64,000 nucleotides of DNA from Patescibacteria group bacterium (lineage in GTDB: Bacteria; Patescibacteriota; Patescibacteriia; UBA9934). Where the stretch lies: contig JBAZWW010000003.1 of the NCBI GenBank assembly GCA_041660165.1, forward strand, positions 4,352 through 68,351. Direction: 5' to 3'. The translations under genes were made by a program, and so were the position numbers. The notes under the pieces were generated by a model. The model was not told the origin of the DNA. It saw only the letters and a list, made by a program, of their open reading frames with translations, and made no database searches. Of this stretch, positions 9,390 through 49,433 are shown piece by piece. Each line of letters begins with the position of its first letter. Within the stretch, counting starts at the first letter, position 1.

Positions 9390-9422
9390 ATCGCTTATTG
9401 AGTACTATAGGTGTTCACCCCT

Positions 9423-9791
9423 TTATCCACAAGATAAAACTGTGGACAAACCTACGAACTGTAATGAAAAATCGTCATTTATACACAGATATTTTGTCTA
9501 CACCAGTGTAGCCAAATAAAGTTATCCCCAGCAATCGTTTTCATTACAGACTGTTACCAACTAATTCTATTTTTCCACCCACCAAACCATAGCAACCATC
9601 AGTTCACGTTAGGTTGCGGGTATATAAAATGGAATTCTTGGGAGGTAATCCGACCGGAATGATATTTTGTATACCTGCGACCAGCCAAGAAATTGGCGAT
9701 ACAAGTCGCTACGCATCTCATCACACATGGAACTTACAGCGTAGTTATCCTTCTCATACACATGTTATCCACAGTTTGTGGCGCTATCCAC
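9423..9791. promoter_or_regulatory. Cluster of DnaA-box-like sites in a 480-bp intergenic region upstream of the surface-protein operon
   Basis: Perfect TTATCCACA at 9423-9431 and 9764-9772. CTATCCACA at 9783-9791. TGTGGACAA at 9441-9449. A TATACACAGAT motif near 9484. Confidence 0.4.
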
Positions 9792-9837
9792 AGAGCTCAC
9801 TCAATAATACGTTCCATATGGGACATCCAAACACGAC

Positions 9838-9872
9838 AAACAAAAAACCTCCTACAAATTAGGAGATTTTCT
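9838..9872 (-). terminator. Rho-independent terminator downstream of tRNA-Ala
   Basis: Hairpin AACCTCCTacaaatTAGGAGATT; on the minus strand it is followed by TTTTTTG. Confidence 0.4.
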
Positions 9873-9873
9873 A

Positions 9874-36796: not shown

Positions 36797-38035
36797 ATGG
36801 AAAAATTGAATATCCCATTACAAGAAAATCCAATCCCCCAAAAATTTTGGGGGATTGTGGCGTTTGTATTACCGAGCATCCTGGTCGCAGTCACCTCGAT
36901 GATCGCTTTTCGAGCTGTCCTTGCCATGGATACGCTCAGTTCGCTTGCCCCAAAGGATACAAACTACGCCGTACGTCTGTTAAAAACACCGATGACCCGC
37001 CAAGCACTCGATGACCGTTTTCACGGCATCCTTGTCTTCAATGACGCGCCGTGGACAATAGACGGAATACTCGATCGATCCCACCGTAATGCCATTTTTT
37101 TCTTTAACGATTCAGGAATTTCGGGCGTTGCTTTTGACGGCAAGCTCGATGAAACCGATAAACAAACTGCTGAGGCCCTGCATTTCACGGTTTCAAAAAC
37201 CGATGCTGGCACCTATATTGGCCGGGAAGCTCCTTTTGATACTCAACTAAGGCCAAGATTCAGCCTGGCCTCTTTTATGCCCTGGGCCAATGGGGAAGTA
37301 AGCGTGTTCACGAATGGCCAGCGTCAATCCGCCGGACTTCGCCTGACTAAGGATTCACTGCGCATCTACGGACTTGGCAGAGGTGCTCGCCTGCGCTCAC
37401 CGCTCGATGACGCGGGCGCCAAGGTAGCAGCGGCCTTCTCAATGACCGCCGGCGAGTTCAAAACGATCCTTTCGCCTGACGTCCCGCTGGTCTACCCGGG
37501 TATCAGAGCCCTGTTCGCGGAGGCTGGCGCCAAGGGACTCTCCTTCGTACTTGGCCAAGATCAAGCCGGCACAGCCTTCTCACTTACTATCCCAGGCGGA
37601 TCGCTGGCGCGCGAGGATTTAGAAAGCGCCACAAGCGAGCTCTTCGCCCTTGATCACCTAAAGACCACCGAGTACGAGGATGTCTACACCAGACTGGACG
37701 AAATAGTGTCATCAAGCACCGAAAAACCAGTTACGACGAGCGAGCCAGGCATCACCATTACAAGTCTCCGCGAAAATGATGGCCGGGTGGTCCGGGCGAC
37801 CCAGACGAATCAGAGCCTTATCATCACCAATAGAGAAACAAAAATCCAAGGAAAATCGCCAACTGTAAAGGAGAAATCAAGCTGTCTGCGTGGGACAAAT
37901 CAGTTTATCCTGCCGGAAGTAGCTGGCGCACTCGCCCCACAACAAATTATCGTTTCACCGAGGACAATTGTGACCATGTTACTAGCCAGTAATGAGATTG
38001 CCTTCGCTGACACCTCAACGAAGGCCTGCTGGTGA
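36797..38035 (+). CDS. Hypothetical membrane-anchored protein co-transcribed with pnp
   Basis: 412 aa. The start codon is 2 nt after the pnp stop. N-terminal TM helix (FWGIVAFVLPSILVAVTSMIAF); no recognised domain. Confidence 0.5.
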   Translation: MEKLNIPLQENPIPQKFWGIVAFVLPSILVAVTSMIAFRAVLAMDTLSSLAPKDTNYAVRLLKTPMTRQALDDRFHGILVFNDAPWTIDGILDRSHRNAIFFFNDSGISGVAFDGKLDETDKQTAEALHFTVSKTDAGTYIGREAPFDTQLRPRFSLASFMPWANGEVSVFTNGQRQSAGLRLTKDSLRIYGLGRGARLRSPLDDAGAKVAAAFSMTAGEFKTILSPDVPLVYPGIRALFAEAGAKGLSFVLGQDQAGTAFSLTIPGGSLAREDLESATSELFALDHLKTTEYEDVYTRLDEIVSSSTEKPVTTSEPGITITSLRENDGRVVRATQTNQSLIITNRETKIQGKSPTVKEKSSCLRGTNQFILPEVAGALAPQQIIVSPRTIVTMLLASNEIAFADTSTKACW

Positions 38036-38125
38036 TAACTGTGGATAACTTGGGTATAAGTAGGATAACTTGCACACTTCTTGTACTCAAAGGGTGAACA
38101 CCCCCTGTACTCGATTATCCACATG
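38033..38125. promoter_or_regulatory. DnaA-box cluster (second oriC-like element) with adjacent AT-rich stretch
   Basis: TGTGGATAA at 38040-38048. Three GGATAACTTG-type repeats (38033-38070). TTATCCACA at 38115-38123. AT-rich 38150-38205 (agatatataaattgtttacaatttgtac). Confidence 0.4.
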
Positions 38126-38596
38126 ACTAACGTATTTGGCTAATCCTAGAGATATATAAATTGTTTACAATTTGTACTCAGGTTATATACTGAATCCTGT
38201 AATCGTTCTTTCTAAATTCCGTCCTGTGGGTAAAACCACGGGAGTGACTCGGGGAAATTGCCGAAGCCCCACAAGATCTTCGGGATGACCTCACTTGCGC
38301 TCCTCACTCCATGGCTCCGCGGTTGATGGCGGTAGCATTTCGGGAAACCGTCACCTCATGGTCAGGGTAGGGCAATCAGTCAGTAGGTTTGGCAGGCAAG
38401 TGCATTCTGGCGTTGTGTCTGGTGTACGAGGACCCTCGCACTCCGAACCCAATGTCAGAGTTCATGAACCCCCAATCCGCCCGGTCGGGCTATGCTCGAC
38501 CACGGGGACTCGATCGCGGGGATATCTATCAGAAATCCCTTTGCAACCGAGCCCCCTTTTCTTTTTCAGGCGAATCGTATATCGTCTATCAATCAT

Positions 38597-38980
38597 ATGG
38601 CCAAAGCTATTTCCAAAGCATTTATTGAAGAGATGAAAGCTCTTCTCGTTGCCGAGTCCGCAAAACTCGAAACCGAACTTTCGCATATTGCCCACCGTAA
38701 CCCCAAAGAAAACGGGGAATTGATTACGGATTATAAAGACGTAGGAAGCGATGAAGGCGAAAACGCTTTTGAAGTTGCCCAATTTAGCGACAATCTTTCA
38801 CTCGAACAGGAGCTGGAGTCCGCTCAAAAGGACGTAAACTCGGCCTTGAAAGCTATTGAGAAAGGATCCTACGGCACCTGCAAATACTGCAAACAGCAAA
38901 TTTCCGAAGCCCGCCTGCGCATTCGCCCAACCTCAACGTCCTGCGTGGCCTGTAAGAAAACACTCACCCAAGAGCTCTAG
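38597..38980 (+). CDS. DksA/TraR-family C4-type zinc-finger protein
   Basis: Internal start MAKAISKAFIEEMKALL.... C-terminal CKYCKQQISEARLRIRPTSTSCVACK (CxxC-x17-CxxC); about 127 aa. Confidence 0.6.
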   Translation: MAKAISKAFIEEMKALLVAESAKLETELSHIAHRNPKENGELITDYKDVGSDEGENAFEVAQFSDNLSLEQELESAQKDVNSALKAIEKGSYGTCKYCKQQISEARLRIRPTSTSCVACKKTLTQEL

Positions 38981-38981
38981 T

Positions 38982-39455
38982 ATGACCAAAGGACGCTTCC
39001 TTGCGGGGGTGGCCGTCCTCACGCTCCTTGCCGTACTCGACGCCATACTCAAGTCGCTCGCCATCAATCACGCCGGTCCCGCGAATAGTTCGAGCATTCC
39101 GCTACTTTTCGCCTTCGCTCTTCATAAAAATCCCGGCATCGCTTTTGATATTCCGCTCCCGCTTGCGATCATTCTTCCGCTCACCCTTGTCATTGGTGGT
39201 ATTTTCGGCGCGTATTTCGGCGCTTCGGCTGTTCGTTCTCACAAATACATTGAAGCCCTAGCCTGCGCCTCAATCTGTATAGGTGCCCTCGGTAATTTCA
39301 TTGACCGAGCCGTTAACGGTTTTACCACCGACTACCTCATTCTCTTCAGAACCTCGGCCATCAATCTCTCTGACCTCATGATCCTGGCCGGCATGATCGC
39401 TTTTTTGTGGTACCATAAAGGCATCCCCAGTAGTGAGGCACCGAAAACAATCTAA
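38982..39455 (+). CDS. lspA: Lipoprotein signal peptidase (signal peptidase II)
   Basis: MTKGRFLAGVAVLTLLAVLDAILK.... Four TM segments. GNFIDRAVNGFTTDYL matches the LspA GNxxDR...DF motif. The ATG follows the TraR stop directly. Confidence 0.8.
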   Translation: MTKGRFLAGVAVLTLLAVLDAILKSLAINHAGPANSSSIPLLFAFALHKNPGIAFDIPLPLAIILPLTLVIGGIFGAYFGASAVRSHKYIEALACASICIGALGNFIDRAVNGFTTDYLILFRTSAINLSDLMILAGMIAFLWYHKGIPSSEAPKTI

Positions 39456-44702: not shown

Positions 44703-44984
44703 TTGATGACATGGTTTCGACAAAGAATGAACTCGAGTCTCTCGGTCATTCAGTCTACATGCCACCAACTCAGATTACGTTGCCTGACGGACGCGAGATC
44801 AGTACGGCTGAAATGTATGCGACTTACAAAACCGCCTAAGAGCGAGCCCCGTTGGTACGCACTCGGCAAAACGAACGAGGGACGCTTACTCTTCCTGGCC
44901 TTCACCATCCGCCATGAAAAAATCCGTATCATCTCAGCGCGAGACATGAGTAAACATGAACGACAAGCATATGCAAAAGCTTAA
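44703..44984 (+). pseudogene. BrnT-like toxin remnant (C-terminal half only)
   Basis: Only residues from about 44844 (EPRWYALGKTNEGRLLFLAFTIRHEKIRIISARDMSKHERQAYAK) match BrnT/DUF497. The expected N-terminal half is absent. The preceding 56-aa ORF 44669-44839 (MKITLCGSLKF...) is unrelated. Confidence 0.45.
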
Positions 44985-45598: not shown

Positions 45599-45838
45599 TC
45601 ACGGCTGATCAATACCGCCGTCAGTCCACGGATGACATCTCAAAACTCTTCCCCCTCCTTTAAAAGCTCCCCTCAGAACCCCGTATTTCAGAATGGCCTG
45701 CCGAGTGTACTCGGAACACGATGGATAGAATGGACAATACCCATACGGATACAAAATTTTCAAAGGACCGTGATCAAAGGACACGGTCTTTTGATAGGCC
45801 AGAATTGGCAAGCAAGCCAGATTTCTTAAGAACGCCTT
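45599..45838 (-). CDS. yidD: Membrane protein insertion efficiency factor YidD
   Basis: ...LAYQKTVSF...GYCPFYPSCSEYTRQAILKYGVLRGAFKGGGRVLRCHPWTDGGID matches YidD. No ATG is available, so the proposed start is a TTG preceded by AGGAA. It overlaps the 3' end of rnpA. Confidence 0.6.
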   Translation of the reverse strand, partial: KAFLRNLACLPILAYQKTVSFDHGPLKILYPYGYCPFYPSCSEYTRQAILKYGVLRGAFKGGGRVLRCHPWTDGGIDQP

Positions 45839-46145
45839 CAAGGCGCTGTTCCTTTGCTGAAAAATCAAGGTCAAGCGCTCCTTTGCCGGCCAAGAGAATA
45901 AGGTCATAGCCTGGAGTAATCCTTGGTAACATTTTTTTCATGATTTCCTGATACTGGCGCCTGACCCAGTTGCGATCAACAGCCCGCTTGCTCACCTTGA
46001 GGCCGGTCACGACGGTTACTCGAACAGTAGTTGTGCCGTTCTTGCTGTACTTCACTCCACACACGGCATCAAACACGCCCTTCTTGGCCTTAAGGACTTT
46101 GGCAATATCCGCGTCTTTCTTCAGGCGTTGGCTCTTCTTTAACAT
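45774..46145 (-). CDS. rnpA: Ribonuclease P protein component
   Basis: MLKKSQRLKKDADIAKVLKAKKGVFDAV...RAVDRNWVRRQYQEI... is a typical RnpA of 123 aa, located directly downstream of rpmH. Confidence 0.75.
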   Translation of the reverse strand: MLKKSQRLKKDADIAKVLKAKKGVFDAVCGVKYSKNGTTTVRVTVVTGLKVSKRAVDRNWVRRQYQEIMKKMLPRITPGYDLILLAGKGALDLDFSAKEQRLEGVLKKSGLLANSGLSKDRVL

Positions 46146-46162
46146 AAAAGAAAACCCCCGTT

Positions 46163-46315
46163 CTAGCGGGGGCGCTCTTTGAGCGTAAGTTTCTTGCGTC
46201 CCTTAGCGCGTCTGCGCTTCAAAACAGCTCGGCCGTCCTTGGTCTTCATCCGCTGGCGGAAGCCGTGCACCTTGGCCCGTCTGACCTTCTTTGGTTGGTA
46301 TGTTCGCTTAGGCAT
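46163..46315 (-). CDS. rpmH: 50S ribosomal protein L34
   Basis: Not in the ORF track (50 aa). Reverse-strand translation [50 protein letters not shown] is a canonical L34. Confidence 0.85.
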
Positions 46316-46383: not shown

Positions 46384-46572
46384 TTACACAGATCGCAAAA
46401 ACGACGACAGATTTAACACAGATATGAGGTCCGATCCATGTCCATCTGTGTTTATCTGTGACAGAGGGCGATCTGTGTTCATCGAATGTCGAGTTACCCA
46501 CAGCCTATCCACACTTATCCACAACTTCACAGAAAGCTCAACACTTGCAATAGTTTGTGGGCTGTGGATAGA
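46384..46572. promoter_or_regulatory. oriC-like region upstream of dnaA: DnaA boxes plus ACACAGAT-type repeats
   Basis: CTATCCACA 46505-46513. TTATCCACA 46516-46524. TGTGGATAG 46564-46572. Five (T/A)ACACAGAT / ATCTGTG repeats at 46384-46485. Confidence 0.55.
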
Positions 46573-48063: not shown

Positions 48064-48295
48064 CGTGGATAAGGGGAGGGATAACCAGTAGGATAACGCG
48101 GTGCATAAATGGGGGATAGATCGAGGAGCTTCAAACCTCGCTGACTTGCCCACCATCCGTCCAGTGCTCCGCGCAGGTTTTCTACACAACCGATAATCTC
48201 AAATAGGCCGATAGATAAAAGGCTTGCCGAGTTATCCGCCTTATCCACAGACTCTCTATTGTTACTGGTTCTTATATATAAATAATTCAGAAGCA
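48064..48295. promoter_or_regulatory. oriC between dnaA and dnaN: DnaA boxes and AT-rich DUE
   Basis: CGTGGATAA 48064-48072. GGGATAACC and AGGATAACG. TTATCCGCC 48232-48240. TTATCCACA 48241-48249. AT-rich cttatatataaataattcag 48271-48292. Confidence 0.55.
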
Positions 48296-48299
48296 ATCT

Positions 48300-49433
48300 G
48301 TGAAACTCTCCTGCACCCGTGAAAATTTACACCAAGGACTTTCCATTGTGAGTCATATAAGTGGAAAATCAGTGAACCTGCCCATTTTGAACAATGTCCT
48401 CTTTAGGGCGGATATCAGTGGACTCAAGCTAACGGCAACTAACCTGGACATGACCGTCACTTGCTCGGTCAGAAGCAAGGTAGACCAGCCCGGCGAGTAC
48501 ACCGTTCCCGCTAAGCTCATTGCCGATTACGTTTCGTTACTGCCGGACGAACGGGTTGATCTTGATCTTCTTGATACTTCGCTTTCTGTCGTCTGTGGAT
48601 CCTCGAAAACGAAAATCAACGGTTTGGCTCCAAGCGAGTTCCCACTCGTTCCTCAAGTTACAGGCGGAGTGAAATTCATCGTGCCCGTAGCCCCGTTTGA
48701 TAGCGCCCTCGGTCAGACGCTCTTCTCGGTTTCAACAAGCGAGGCCCGGCAGGTACTTACCGGTGCGTATCTTGAGTTCAACGGCGACAAGAAAATGCTC
48801 ACCATTGCGGCGACAGACTCGTACAGGCTGGGCGAGCGTCAGATTGCGCTTACGGGCGACATCATGGGCGAGCGCAAGGTTGTGGTCCCCTCAAGGACGC
48901 TGGCCGAACTGCGCCGGATTATTGGCGTTCTGCGCGACGCGGTCGAGATTCCCGAAACGCTCGAAATAGAAATTACCGATAACCAAGTTGCTTTCCGCTA
49001 CGGAAGCGTTGAGCTATCGAGCAGAACAATCGACGGCGTTTATCCCGATTATCGACAGATTATCCCCAAGACGAGCATGACAGAGATCATCGTTAATAAA
49101 ACGCTGTTCTCTCAGGCTGTACGGCGTGCGAGTCTCTTCTCGAAGGCCGGCCTGTTCGATGTAAAGCTCGAAGTGAAGGCCGGGACGAACGAAGTTGTCC
49201 TCTCGGCTACGGACGCTGGCAGAGGTGAGCACACAGTGGCAGTCGAGGGCGAGGTGACGGGCACAGACAACGCCGTCACGCTCAACTATCGCTATCTCTT
49301 GGACGGTATTAGCGCCATGAACTCGGATAAAGTAATCGTGAAGTTCATAGACGCTACAAACCCCTGCCTAGTTGTCCCGAACGAAAAGCCAGACGAGAAA
49401 TATCTGTACATTGTGATGCCGATTCGGCAATAG
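48300..49433 (+). CDS. dnaN: DNA polymerase III subunit beta (sliding clamp)
   Basis: 377 aa. MKLSCTRENLHQGLSIVSHISGKSVNLPILNNVLFRA... shows the three-domain beta-clamp pattern and follows dnaA directly. Confidence 0.9.
   Translation: MKLSCTRENLHQGLSIVSHISGKSVNLPILNNVLFRADISGLKLTATNLDMTVTCSVRSKVDQPGEYTVPAKLIADYVSLLPDERVDLDLLDTSLSVVCGSSKTKINGLAPSEFPLVPQVTGGVKFIVPVAPFDSALGQTLFSVSTSEARQVLTGAYLEFNGDKKMLTIAATDSYRLGERQIALTGDIMGERKVVVPSRTLAELRRIIGVLRDAVEIPETLEIEITDNQVAFRYGSVELSSRTIDGVYPDYRQIIPKTSMTEIIVNKTLFSQAVRRASLFSKAGLFDVKLEVKAGTNEVVLSATDAGRGEHTVAVEGEVTGTDNAVTLNYRYLLDGISAMNSDKVIVKFIDATNPCLVVPNEKPDEKYLYIVMPIRQ

Follow-up and report, generated by a model that had tools for sequence, protein, structure and literature searches.

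A structured RNA conserved beside DnaA boxes and dksA in Candidatus Uhrbacteria-type genomes

What occupies the gene-free gap that separates an open reading frame (ORF) of 412 amino acids (aa) from a dksA/traR-family zinc-finger gene in a Patescibacteria group bacterium? The gap lies within a stretch of 64,000 nucleotides (nt) of contig JBAZWW010000003.1, which is referred to here as the window. The initial annotation, made from the letters of the window, described the gap as a cluster of DnaA boxes followed by a hairpin-rich region, possibly a non-coding RNA (ncRNA) or a secondary origin element. Our analysis indicates, with a probability of roughly 0.6, that a structured ncRNA of about 370 nt is encoded here by a stand-alone gene with its own control region, and that this gene is controlled by DnaA. 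In our best reading, the RNA is a previously undescribed orphan structured RNA that is conserved lineage-wide in Uhrbacteria, and it is neither a second origin of replication nor the RNA of RNase P. The coordinates of the features are collected in Table 1.

Conservation, fold and boundaries of the RNA

Eighty loci, one per species-level genome, were collected via the DksA protein, whose list of homologues comprised close relatives only (at least 58% identity). Nearly all of them consist of an ORF of 390-480 aa, a gene-free gap of about 550-700 bp and dksA, and BLASTN between the loci gives patchy similarity only. Iterated nhmmer searches delineate an element of about 350 positions on the dksA strand in 76 of the 80 species-representative loci, and the resulting family profile matches the window at 38199-38566 with an E value of 4e-39. 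Because the 80 loci had been chosen through DksA, metagenome contigs were also searched with a pattern based on the RNA only, and this RNA-first scan provided 52 copies that were confirmed by the profile. The conservation in relatives that the initial annotation had proposed to look for is therefore found in related genomes and metagenome loci alike. The RNA has so far been found only in Candidatus Uhrbacteria-type genomes of the Patescibacteria, or candidate phyla radiation (CPR). Many third-party co-assembly records of metagenome-assembled genomes (MAGs) that are titled 'uncultured Gammaproteobacteria' (L003, L005, L011, L012 and others) carry the Uhrbacteria-type locus, and their Gammaproteobacteria labels look wrong.

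Hairpins in a single sequence would alone be unconvincing, since the single-sequence fold is only modestly better than that of shuffles (z = -2.4 on the plus strand and -2.05 on the minus strand). The evidence for a folded RNA comes instead from 56 full-length copies aligned with MAFFT (alignment A1), on which RNAalifold predicts 38 pairs, 31 of them with compensatory changes. A 52-pair model, which covers the helices H1, H2, H3 and H5 and the terminator, is 92.5% paired, as compared with 78.5% in shuffles and at most 52% when the partners are slid; 41 of its pairs show double-sided changes, and it has a covariation score of 0.486, where shuffles score 0.22 and slid partners no more than 0.16. 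None of 500 shuffles reaches any of these measures, so that the search for covariation suggested in the initial annotation has a clear and positive outcome. The support extends over all five helices of the model. Helix 1 (H1) has 14 pairs, is 96% paired and contains nine pairs with double-sided changes (alignment columns 76/193, for instance, are UA in 24 copies, CG in 16 and UG in 14); helices 2 and 3 are 92% and 88% paired, with four and five double-sided pairs, respectively; helix 4 (H5) has 19 pairs, 17 with double-sided changes, such as columns 467/515 (UA 28, CG 27) and 480/502 (GC 14, CG 12, UA 12, UG 11); and in helix 5, the terminator stem, all six pairs change on both sides. The family consensus of H2 is CUCUAC/GUAGAG, from which the window copy departs by one mismatch. 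G-U pairs are abundant, columns 214/404 being UG in 56 of the 56 copies, and their frequency shows that the plus strand is the strand that is folded.

The nucleotides with the highest conservation are unpaired. They include the 5' tail CGUUCUUUC, the CCCCAC of the H1 loop, GUAAAACCA, and the G-A-G-U / A-C-C-C segment of H5, which contains an invariant A.C mismatch. An ACAAAAACAAAA linker is present in most clades and not in that of the window, and CCGCCCGGTCGGGC forms a hairpin within a variable linker. The GGGG...CCCC stem pointed out in the initial annotation is not the pairing that is conserved; the conserved one is CCGAAG/CTTCGG, which holds CCCCAC in its loop.

The conserved element is flanked by signals for its own transcription. 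In the window, the promoter matches 10 of the 12 consensus positions and ends about 7 nt ahead of the conserved RNA. A pattern of the form TT[GT]AC-spacer-TAnnnT lies upstream of the RNA in 58 of 68 genome loci and 43 of 50 metagenome loci (about 3% in shuffles). The AT-rich stretch that had been noticed earlier (GC 0.27-0.28 over 38130-38219) corresponds to this promoter. At the other end, a GC-rich stem is followed by a U-run, as in an intrinsic terminator, and the stem is the covarying helix 5. This terminator is a two-tier hairpin whose outer GC stem abuts the U-run, 30 nt before dksA, and a simple terminator scanner missed it in the window because its loop is long. A U-run (at least six U in eight positions) is present in 51 of the 56 members, and the stretch between the first position of the conserved element and the U-run has a median length of about 370 nt across members. 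The possible ncRNA of the initial annotation thus becomes a conserved, covarying and strand-specific RNA with a promoter and a terminator of its own.

A protein-coding reading of the gap was rejected. None of the mechanically called ORFs within 38036-38596 matched a Pfam family, and these ORFs are not conserved: those on the plus strand gave zero or one tblastn match among 156 related loci, for which DksA gave 121, and the minus-strand ORF gave four, all of them antisense to dksA. The gap is therefore gene-free in the sense of the initial annotation, which had seen no credible ORF in it.

Table 1. Features of the RNA locus and of the genes around it (window coordinates).
Feature	Position	Strand	Remarks
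412-aa ORF	36797-38035	+	Upstream neighbour; no Pfam match
Phased DnaA-box array	38030-38069		Four head-to-tail 10-bp units: TGGTGATAAC, TGTGGATAAC, TTGGGTATAA, GTAGGATAAC
Gene-free gap	38036-38596		561 bp, between the 412-aa ORF and dksA
Perfect DnaA box TGTGGATAA	38040-38048		In the second unit of the phased array
Near-palindromic motif GGTGAACACC	38093-38102		Core TGAACAC; may be recognised by a further DNA-binding factor
Promoter-proximal perfect DnaA box TTATCCACA	38115-38123	+	Centre at about -79 relative to the inferred transcription start
Sigma-70-type promoter of the RNA	38164-38191	+	-35 TTTACA (38164-69); 16-nt spacer containing GTACTCA; -10 TATACT (38186-91)
Structured ncRNA, about 370 nt	38198-38566	+	Spans the inferred start through the terminator U-run
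5' tail CGUUCUUUC	38204-38212	+	Near-invariant, unpaired; invariant A1 columns G11, T13, C14, T16, T17
H0, 5' hairpin	38223-38242	+	CCUGUGG / CCACGGG; within A1 present only in the window's clade
H1	38253-38292	+	GG..CCGAAG / CUUCGG..UC; loop carries conserved CCCCAC (38267-38272)
H2	38300-38370	+	CUCCUC (38300-05) / GGGUAG (38365-70); encloses the H3 stem and a conserved AACC element
H5, long irregular hairpin	38408-38457	+	GGCGUUG.GU... / ...AC.CAAUGUC; invariant G-A-G-U / A-C-C-C internal segment
Intrinsic terminator	38504-38566	+	Outer stem GGGGACUCG (38504-12) / CGAGCCCCC (38548-56); inner stem-loop; U-run UUUUCUUUUU (38557-66)
Weak -10-like TATCGT	38580-38585	+	At 11 nt from the dksA ATG; the extended -10 of most relatives occupies this site
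dksA/traR-family zinc-finger gene, 127 aa	38597-38980	+	Pfam PF01258; separate from the neighbouring RNA
lspA	38982-39455		After dksA; Pfam PF01252
rnpA	45777-46145	minus	Pfam PF00825
dnaA	46617-48020		8.0 kb from the gap
dnaN	48300-49433

DnaA boxes upstream of the RNA promoter

DnaA boxes are over-represented in the window as a whole, which contains 27 boxes with at most one mismatch, compared with 11.2 +/- 3.4 in shuffles (none of 100 reaches 27). The six perfect boxes fall into four intergenic clusters: at 9.4-9.8 kb, at 38.0-38.1 kb, upstream of dnaA, and between dnaA and dnaN. The cluster at the RNA locus, to which the initial annotation had drawn attention, contains two of these exact boxes and is conserved in relatives. 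The three repeats that were also reported there could be recovered in part: GGATAACTTG occurs exactly twice (38043-52 and 38063-72) rather than three times, and a four-unit array with a 10-bp period is found at the same place. The first unit of the array overlaps the TGA stop of the 412-aa ORF, and the TTATCCACA box is inverted relative to the array and lies about 40 bp upstream of the -35 hexamer. A further one-mismatch box at 38225-38233, inside hairpin H0, is probably incidental.

This association is conserved across the family. Perfect boxes occur within 200 nt upstream of the RNA at a density of 10.4 per kb, as opposed to 0.18 per kb in the remainder of these loci, which is a 58-fold enrichment, and the conserved position of the cluster is about 75-150 bp ahead of the RNA start. 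The main clade has two perfect boxes in the same orientation at a spacing of 31 bp; in the window's clade, a degenerate array with a 10-bp period begins at the stop codon of the upstream ORF and is accompanied by the inverted box, and a box at -83 to -88 recurs across this clade. The arrangement of the boxes thus varies by clade, and their association with the RNA promoter is constant. Consensus boxes at a fixed position relative to the promoter, as expected of a DnaA-regulated promoter, are present in 66 of 68 genome loci and in 44 of 50 RNA-first metagenome loci, 39 of the latter 50 having at least two perfect boxes. We infer from this pattern that DnaA probably regulates the RNA promoter through the boxes as a transcription factor, by activation or repression.

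A cluster of boxes beside an AT-rich unwinding element would be expected of oriC, and the initial annotation had suggested a secondary origin or an oriC-associated element. The boxes are present here, the AT-rich segment coincides with the conserved -35/-10 promoter, and the GC skew places the origin elsewhere. Cumulative skew falls from 0 to about 48 kb and then rises, with a minimum at 47-49 kb, at dnaA/dnaN, that coincides with the box clusters at 46494-46571 and 48064-48249. No switch is seen at 38 kb in the cumulative skew of the 64-kb window, and the skew is negative throughout 37-48 kb. A secondary origin was rejected because of this lack of an inflection, and the skew-defined origin is about 10 kb away from the RNA locus.

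It is improbable, in our estimate, that the cluster serves mainly to manage DnaA, by titration or as a datA/DARS-like or auxiliary origin element, and that the RNA gene beside it is unrelated. The phased array of four boxes in the window and the tandem boxes of the main clade would suit such a site, as would the distance of 10 kb from the skew-defined origin and the similar cluster at 9.4-9.8 kb; and eight intergenic regions with stable DnaA complexes are reported for Bacillus subtilis (PMC2533591). What such a site would not explain is the distance between boxes and promoter, which is fixed across clades despite the changing arrangement, or the presence of the boxes beside the RNA in the RNA-first set too. 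In addition, the locus has no GC-skew switch, its AT-rich segment is a canonical promoter and not a free unwinding element, and the boxes number just 2-5. Control of the RNA promoter by DnaA is the preferred reading.

A second motif accompanies the boxes. The near-palindrome GGTGAACACC occurs only twice in 64 kb (at 38093 and 9410), each time beside DnaA boxes. Its core TGAACAC is found at -100 to -120 in 29 of 69 loci (background 0.08 per kb), and the complement GTGTTCA in 27 of 69, mostly within the promoter spacer. The recurrence of these motifs suggests a second DNA-binding factor or a special class of promoter. In addition, TGTGTTCA stands at 46474, just ahead of the dnaA-proximal boxes.

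Several other arrangements of boxes and repeats were observed. A second gene-free cluster at 9390-9873, with two perfect and four one-mismatch boxes, is located between tRNA-Ala and a 306-aa ORF without a Pfam match. Its minus strand shows the set of motifs known from the RNA locus, with a -35-like hexamer that shares bases with a DnaA box, GGTGAACACC in the spacer, and TATAGT-ACTCA ahead of the ATG; about 200 nt separate its two groups of boxes. The segment 46380-46480, which directly adjoins the four DnaA boxes in front of dnaA on their upstream side, contains six ACAGAT/ATCTGT repeats, three direct and then three inverted, which are probably part of oriC or of the control of the dnaA promoter. 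In L073, L022, L069 and related loci, a palindrome with flanking A/T runs (for example AAAAATATCGC-ACCAT-GCGATATTTTT) stands between the DnaA boxes and the RNA promoter; it looks like a bidirectional terminator, by which the upstream ORF would be isolated from the promoter of the RNA.

Stand-alone gene or leader of dksA

The RNA is tightly linked to dksA. Among the RNA-first copies with at least 450 nt of downstream sequence, 39 of 42 have dksA (and lspA) downstream on the same strand, with the RNA 21-212 nt upstream of dksA, and the median distance from the U-run to the dksA ATG is 55 nt. At first sight this suggests an attenuator, and the initial annotation had accordingly listed a riboswitch leader of the dksA-lspA genes. 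The RNA would then be a very long, attenuator- or riboswitch-like 5' leader that acts in cis, and a signal sensed by the upstream folded domains would decide whether the terminator forms. Alternative pairings of the kind needed for such a switch can be drawn in some clades: in the L026/L073 clade, the 5' strand of the terminator (GGGGCC) can pair with an upstream GGCCCC across a GAAA loop, and this alternative has the lowest minimum free energy in some members; in the L020 type, the 5' strand of the terminator has a possible partner in GCCUCC, the 3' end of H5. These pairings are confined to some clades, however, and an antiterminator finds no support from covariation. A pseudoknot between the CCCCAC loop and the 5' strand of the terminator was likewise tried as an antiterminator and rejected, the strand being variable (GGGGC, AGGGC, GAGGC, AGGAC and others) and the loop constant; only in L010 and L018 does this pairing look compensatory.

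One argument for separate transcription is that dksA usually has a promoter of its own. An extended -10 (TGnTAnnnT) lies between the U-run and dksA in 43 of 58 loci, as against 16% of shuffles, and a further count gave 40 of 57 genome loci and 30 of 35 RNA-first loci. In most relatives, this element stands only 17-44 nt from the dksA ATG. Most genes of the window have no Shine-Dalgarno sequence, and many carry -10-like elements within a few bases of the ATG, which implies that mRNAs with short leaders or none may be widespread in this genome; for the same reason, a dksA mRNA with a very short leader would be normal here. Two loci depart from the usual layout. In L097 (4732-6605), the complete RNA is present and a UvrA-like ABC ATPase takes the place of dksA after it; in L082 (1425-2747), the RNA is truncated at model position 274 and abuts a gene on the opposite strand. 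Both retain the upstream ORF of the 412-aa type and the DnaA boxes.

A leader would be expected to lie upstream on the same strand and to end in a terminator, which is the case; dependence on readthrough and a conserved antiterminator are not found. Among known leaders, a size of about 370 nt would be unusual, as would the invariant 5' tail and loop, and the riboswitch and T-box models of Rfam give no match. A stand-alone gene is favoured because of the extended -10 of dksA, the complete RNA with its terminator in L097, which has no dksA, and the alternative pairings that lack covariation. What stands of the leader proposal is the tight linkage; the separate dksA promoter and L097 reduce the leader to a minority rival that we regard as unlikely.

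Several points nevertheless weigh against a stand-alone, DnaA-controlled gene. The linkage to dksA is nearly absolute, the -10 of dksA in the window is weak and lacks the TG extension, and the terminator 5' strand of one clade has an alternative upstream partner of similar energy; because of these three points, the RNA may have a cis or a dual role. In the main clade, over 110 bp separate the upstream boxes from the start, a long distance for direct control. In addition, DnaA binding, whether activating or repressing, is a prediction from the boxes, the two ends of the transcript are predicted from promoter and terminator motifs only, and no target or partner in trans was found for the RNA. 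In particular, the 5' tail and the loop have no conserved complementary site in the flanks, and GAAAGAAC in the window is neither above chance nor at gene starts.

Relation to known RNAs and possible function

If the RNA is transcribed on its own, does it belong to a known family? Rfam 15 at the gathering score has no match to the RNA in the window or in 18 related loci, and at an E value of up to 10 no family matched credibly in four divergent members (the window, L020, L026 and L016). The Rfam comparison that had been proposed as a check on the initial annotation therefore returned no known family. A match to the S15 leader (21 bits, gathering score 39.5) at 38562-38671 spans the terminator tail and the start of dksA and was treated as chance. 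ARAGORN finds five tRNAs and no tmRNA in the 64-kb window, in agreement with the earlier inspection by eye. The 6S and signal recognition particle (SRP) RNAs also give no Rfam match, and the RNA has unpaired 5' and 3' ends and a multi-branched architecture, in contrast to 6S RNA, a rod with a central bubble that is closed by its paired ends; the earlier suggestion of a 6S RNA was dropped for the lack of a match and the unpaired ends. Identities as tmRNA, 6S, SRP, riboswitch or T-box were all rejected for want of an Rfam or ARAGORN match.

The most plausible of the housekeeping RNAs that standard models might miss is a highly diverged rnpB of Uhrbacteria. Its size would fit, and since rnpA is present the organism has an RNA-based RNase P, for which rnpB must exist somewhere in the genome; it was not found within the 64 kb. 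Diverged forms are known from this radiation: in 10 of 35 complete CPR genomes, the RNase P RNAs could be detected only below the RF00010 threshold (Lui et al. 2021, PMC8172020). These RNAs are similar in size to ours and are likewise missed at standard Rfam thresholds, but they keep many features of RNase P and are found by RF00010 once thresholds are reduced (PMC8172020). The Uhrbacteria RNA, by contrast, is without CR-I, CR-V, P4 and P1. Conserved regions CR-I (GAGGAAAGUCC) and CR-IV/V (ACAGAA..GGCUUA) have best matches with 3-4 mismatches at inconsistent positions, and the pairwise column covariation scan reveals no P1 pairing of the ends and no long-range helix of the P4 type. All covarying helices are local, and the all-against-all scan of columns adds nothing to them except G-run/pyrimidine artefacts. 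Of the RNase P models, only RNaseP_arch gives a match, which is local, scores 7 bits, concerns the P12 region and is confined to L020; the window, L026 and L016 do not show it, and tmRNA, SRP and 6S give no match either. An RNase P S-domain or tRNA-elbow-binding module, which had been seen by eye in GGUAAAACC...UGGUAGAG, was set aside as unsupported, its putative T-loops being poorly conserved. The divergent CPR RNase P RNA proposed in the initial annotation is thus very improbable, and an orphan RNA is the better description.

The DnaA boxes invite comparison with other systems. Described DnaA-regulated promoters mostly drive protein-coding genes (dnaA, sda, nrdAB and others); at the Uhrbacteria locus, unlike these, the controlled unit would be a large structured RNA, in an arrangement that is conserved across a candidate phylum. 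Clusters outside the origin are also known, and two reports describe stable DnaA complexes at eight intergenic regions of B. subtilis (PMC2533591) and a preference of Escherichia coli DnaA for closely spaced pairs of sites (PMC11317965); such clusters are like ours in their clustered or paired consensus boxes and their intergenic, promoter-adjacent position, often near the origin. By analogy, the nearest documented functional counterpart of the RNA is CcnA of Caulobacter crescentus, a cell-cycle ncRNA of 182 nt that is encoded inside the origin and driven through a CtrA box, its DnaA boxes being weak (PMC8959179), and which base-pairs with the 5' untranslated regions of ctrA and gcrA (PMC8959179). 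Both are ncRNA genes at or near the origin with promoter sites for a master regulator of replication or the cell cycle and DnaA boxes in the locus, and for both a coupling of cell-cycle state to gene expression is proposed. The Uhrbacteria RNA differs in its length of about 370 nt, its multiple domains, its distance of 10 kb from the origin and its perfect DnaA boxes, and it has no sequence relation to CcnA.

In its general character, the RNA resembles OLE, ROOL, GOLLD and raiA, which are orphan large structured bacterial ncRNAs and are all in Rfam. Like them, it is several hundred nt long and lineage-restricted, with many covarying helices, conserved unpaired nucleotides and no obvious function. 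Unlike them, it is found in a CPR host and at a fixed position with a DnaA-box promoter, a setting that, to our knowledge, has not been reported for any of the four, and it does not match them. Searches of the literature on structured RNAs of Uhrbacteria or Patescibacteria, and on DnaA boxes combined with a small RNA and dksA, gave no description of this RNA, and neither Rfam 15 nor the searched literature contains a large orphan structured RNA for CPR/Patescibacteria.

The genes around the locus were also recorded. The nearest relatives of the DksA-family protein are in Uhrbacteria MAGs, with identities of up to 80%, and look-ups of exact DksA protein matches gave none. A comM-like gene comes after lspA, downstream of dksA. 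The distance to dnaA is as given in the initial annotation. Just upstream of dnaA, rpmH and rnpA (45777-46314, minus strand) are divergent from it, and an ORF for a BrnT-like ribonuclease toxin (44703-44984, Pfam PF04365) lies about 1.6 kb upstream of dnaA.

How the RNA might work can be outlined. It is predicted to be read on the plus strand from the near-consensus sigma-70 promoter, folds into at least five helices supported by covariation, and ends at the intrinsic terminator. DnaA would bind the boxes as a transcription factor, presumably in a cooperative manner on the phased array or the tandem pair, and synthesis of the RNA may thereby be tied to DnaA and the status of replication initiation. 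Released as a discrete molecule, the RNA would act in trans, with the invariant unpaired 5' CGUUCUUUC, the CCCCAC loop and the GAGU/ACCC internal loop as candidate contact surfaces. The most obvious candidate pathway, and the first to consider because of the DksA-family neighbour, would be the regulation of RNA polymerase, DksA-family proteins being factors of its secondary channel. We tentatively propose, as a possibility held well below that of the gene itself, a new class of large structured RNA: a DnaA-wired, trans-acting riboregulator of 'replication status', or a component of a ribonucleoprotein, that possibly acts on RNA polymerase with the DksA-family factor.

Few bacterial RNAs are at once large, highly structured and of no known function, and the biology of those described earlier turned out to be unexpected. 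The present RNA occurs in at least 76 species-level genomes, with unusually clean covariation and a promoter that is permanently coupled to perfect DnaA boxes. Its alignment is a ready seed for a new RNA family, which would improve the annotation of Uhrbacteria genomes, and searches aimed at diverged CPR RNase P RNAs have one candidate fewer to consider. The coupling to DnaA boxes, in turn, offers a testable handle on how replication and expression are coordinated in ultra-small uncultured bacteria. If the proposed role is true, DNA replication and global transcription would be linked through an RNA in the reduced genomes of the CPR.

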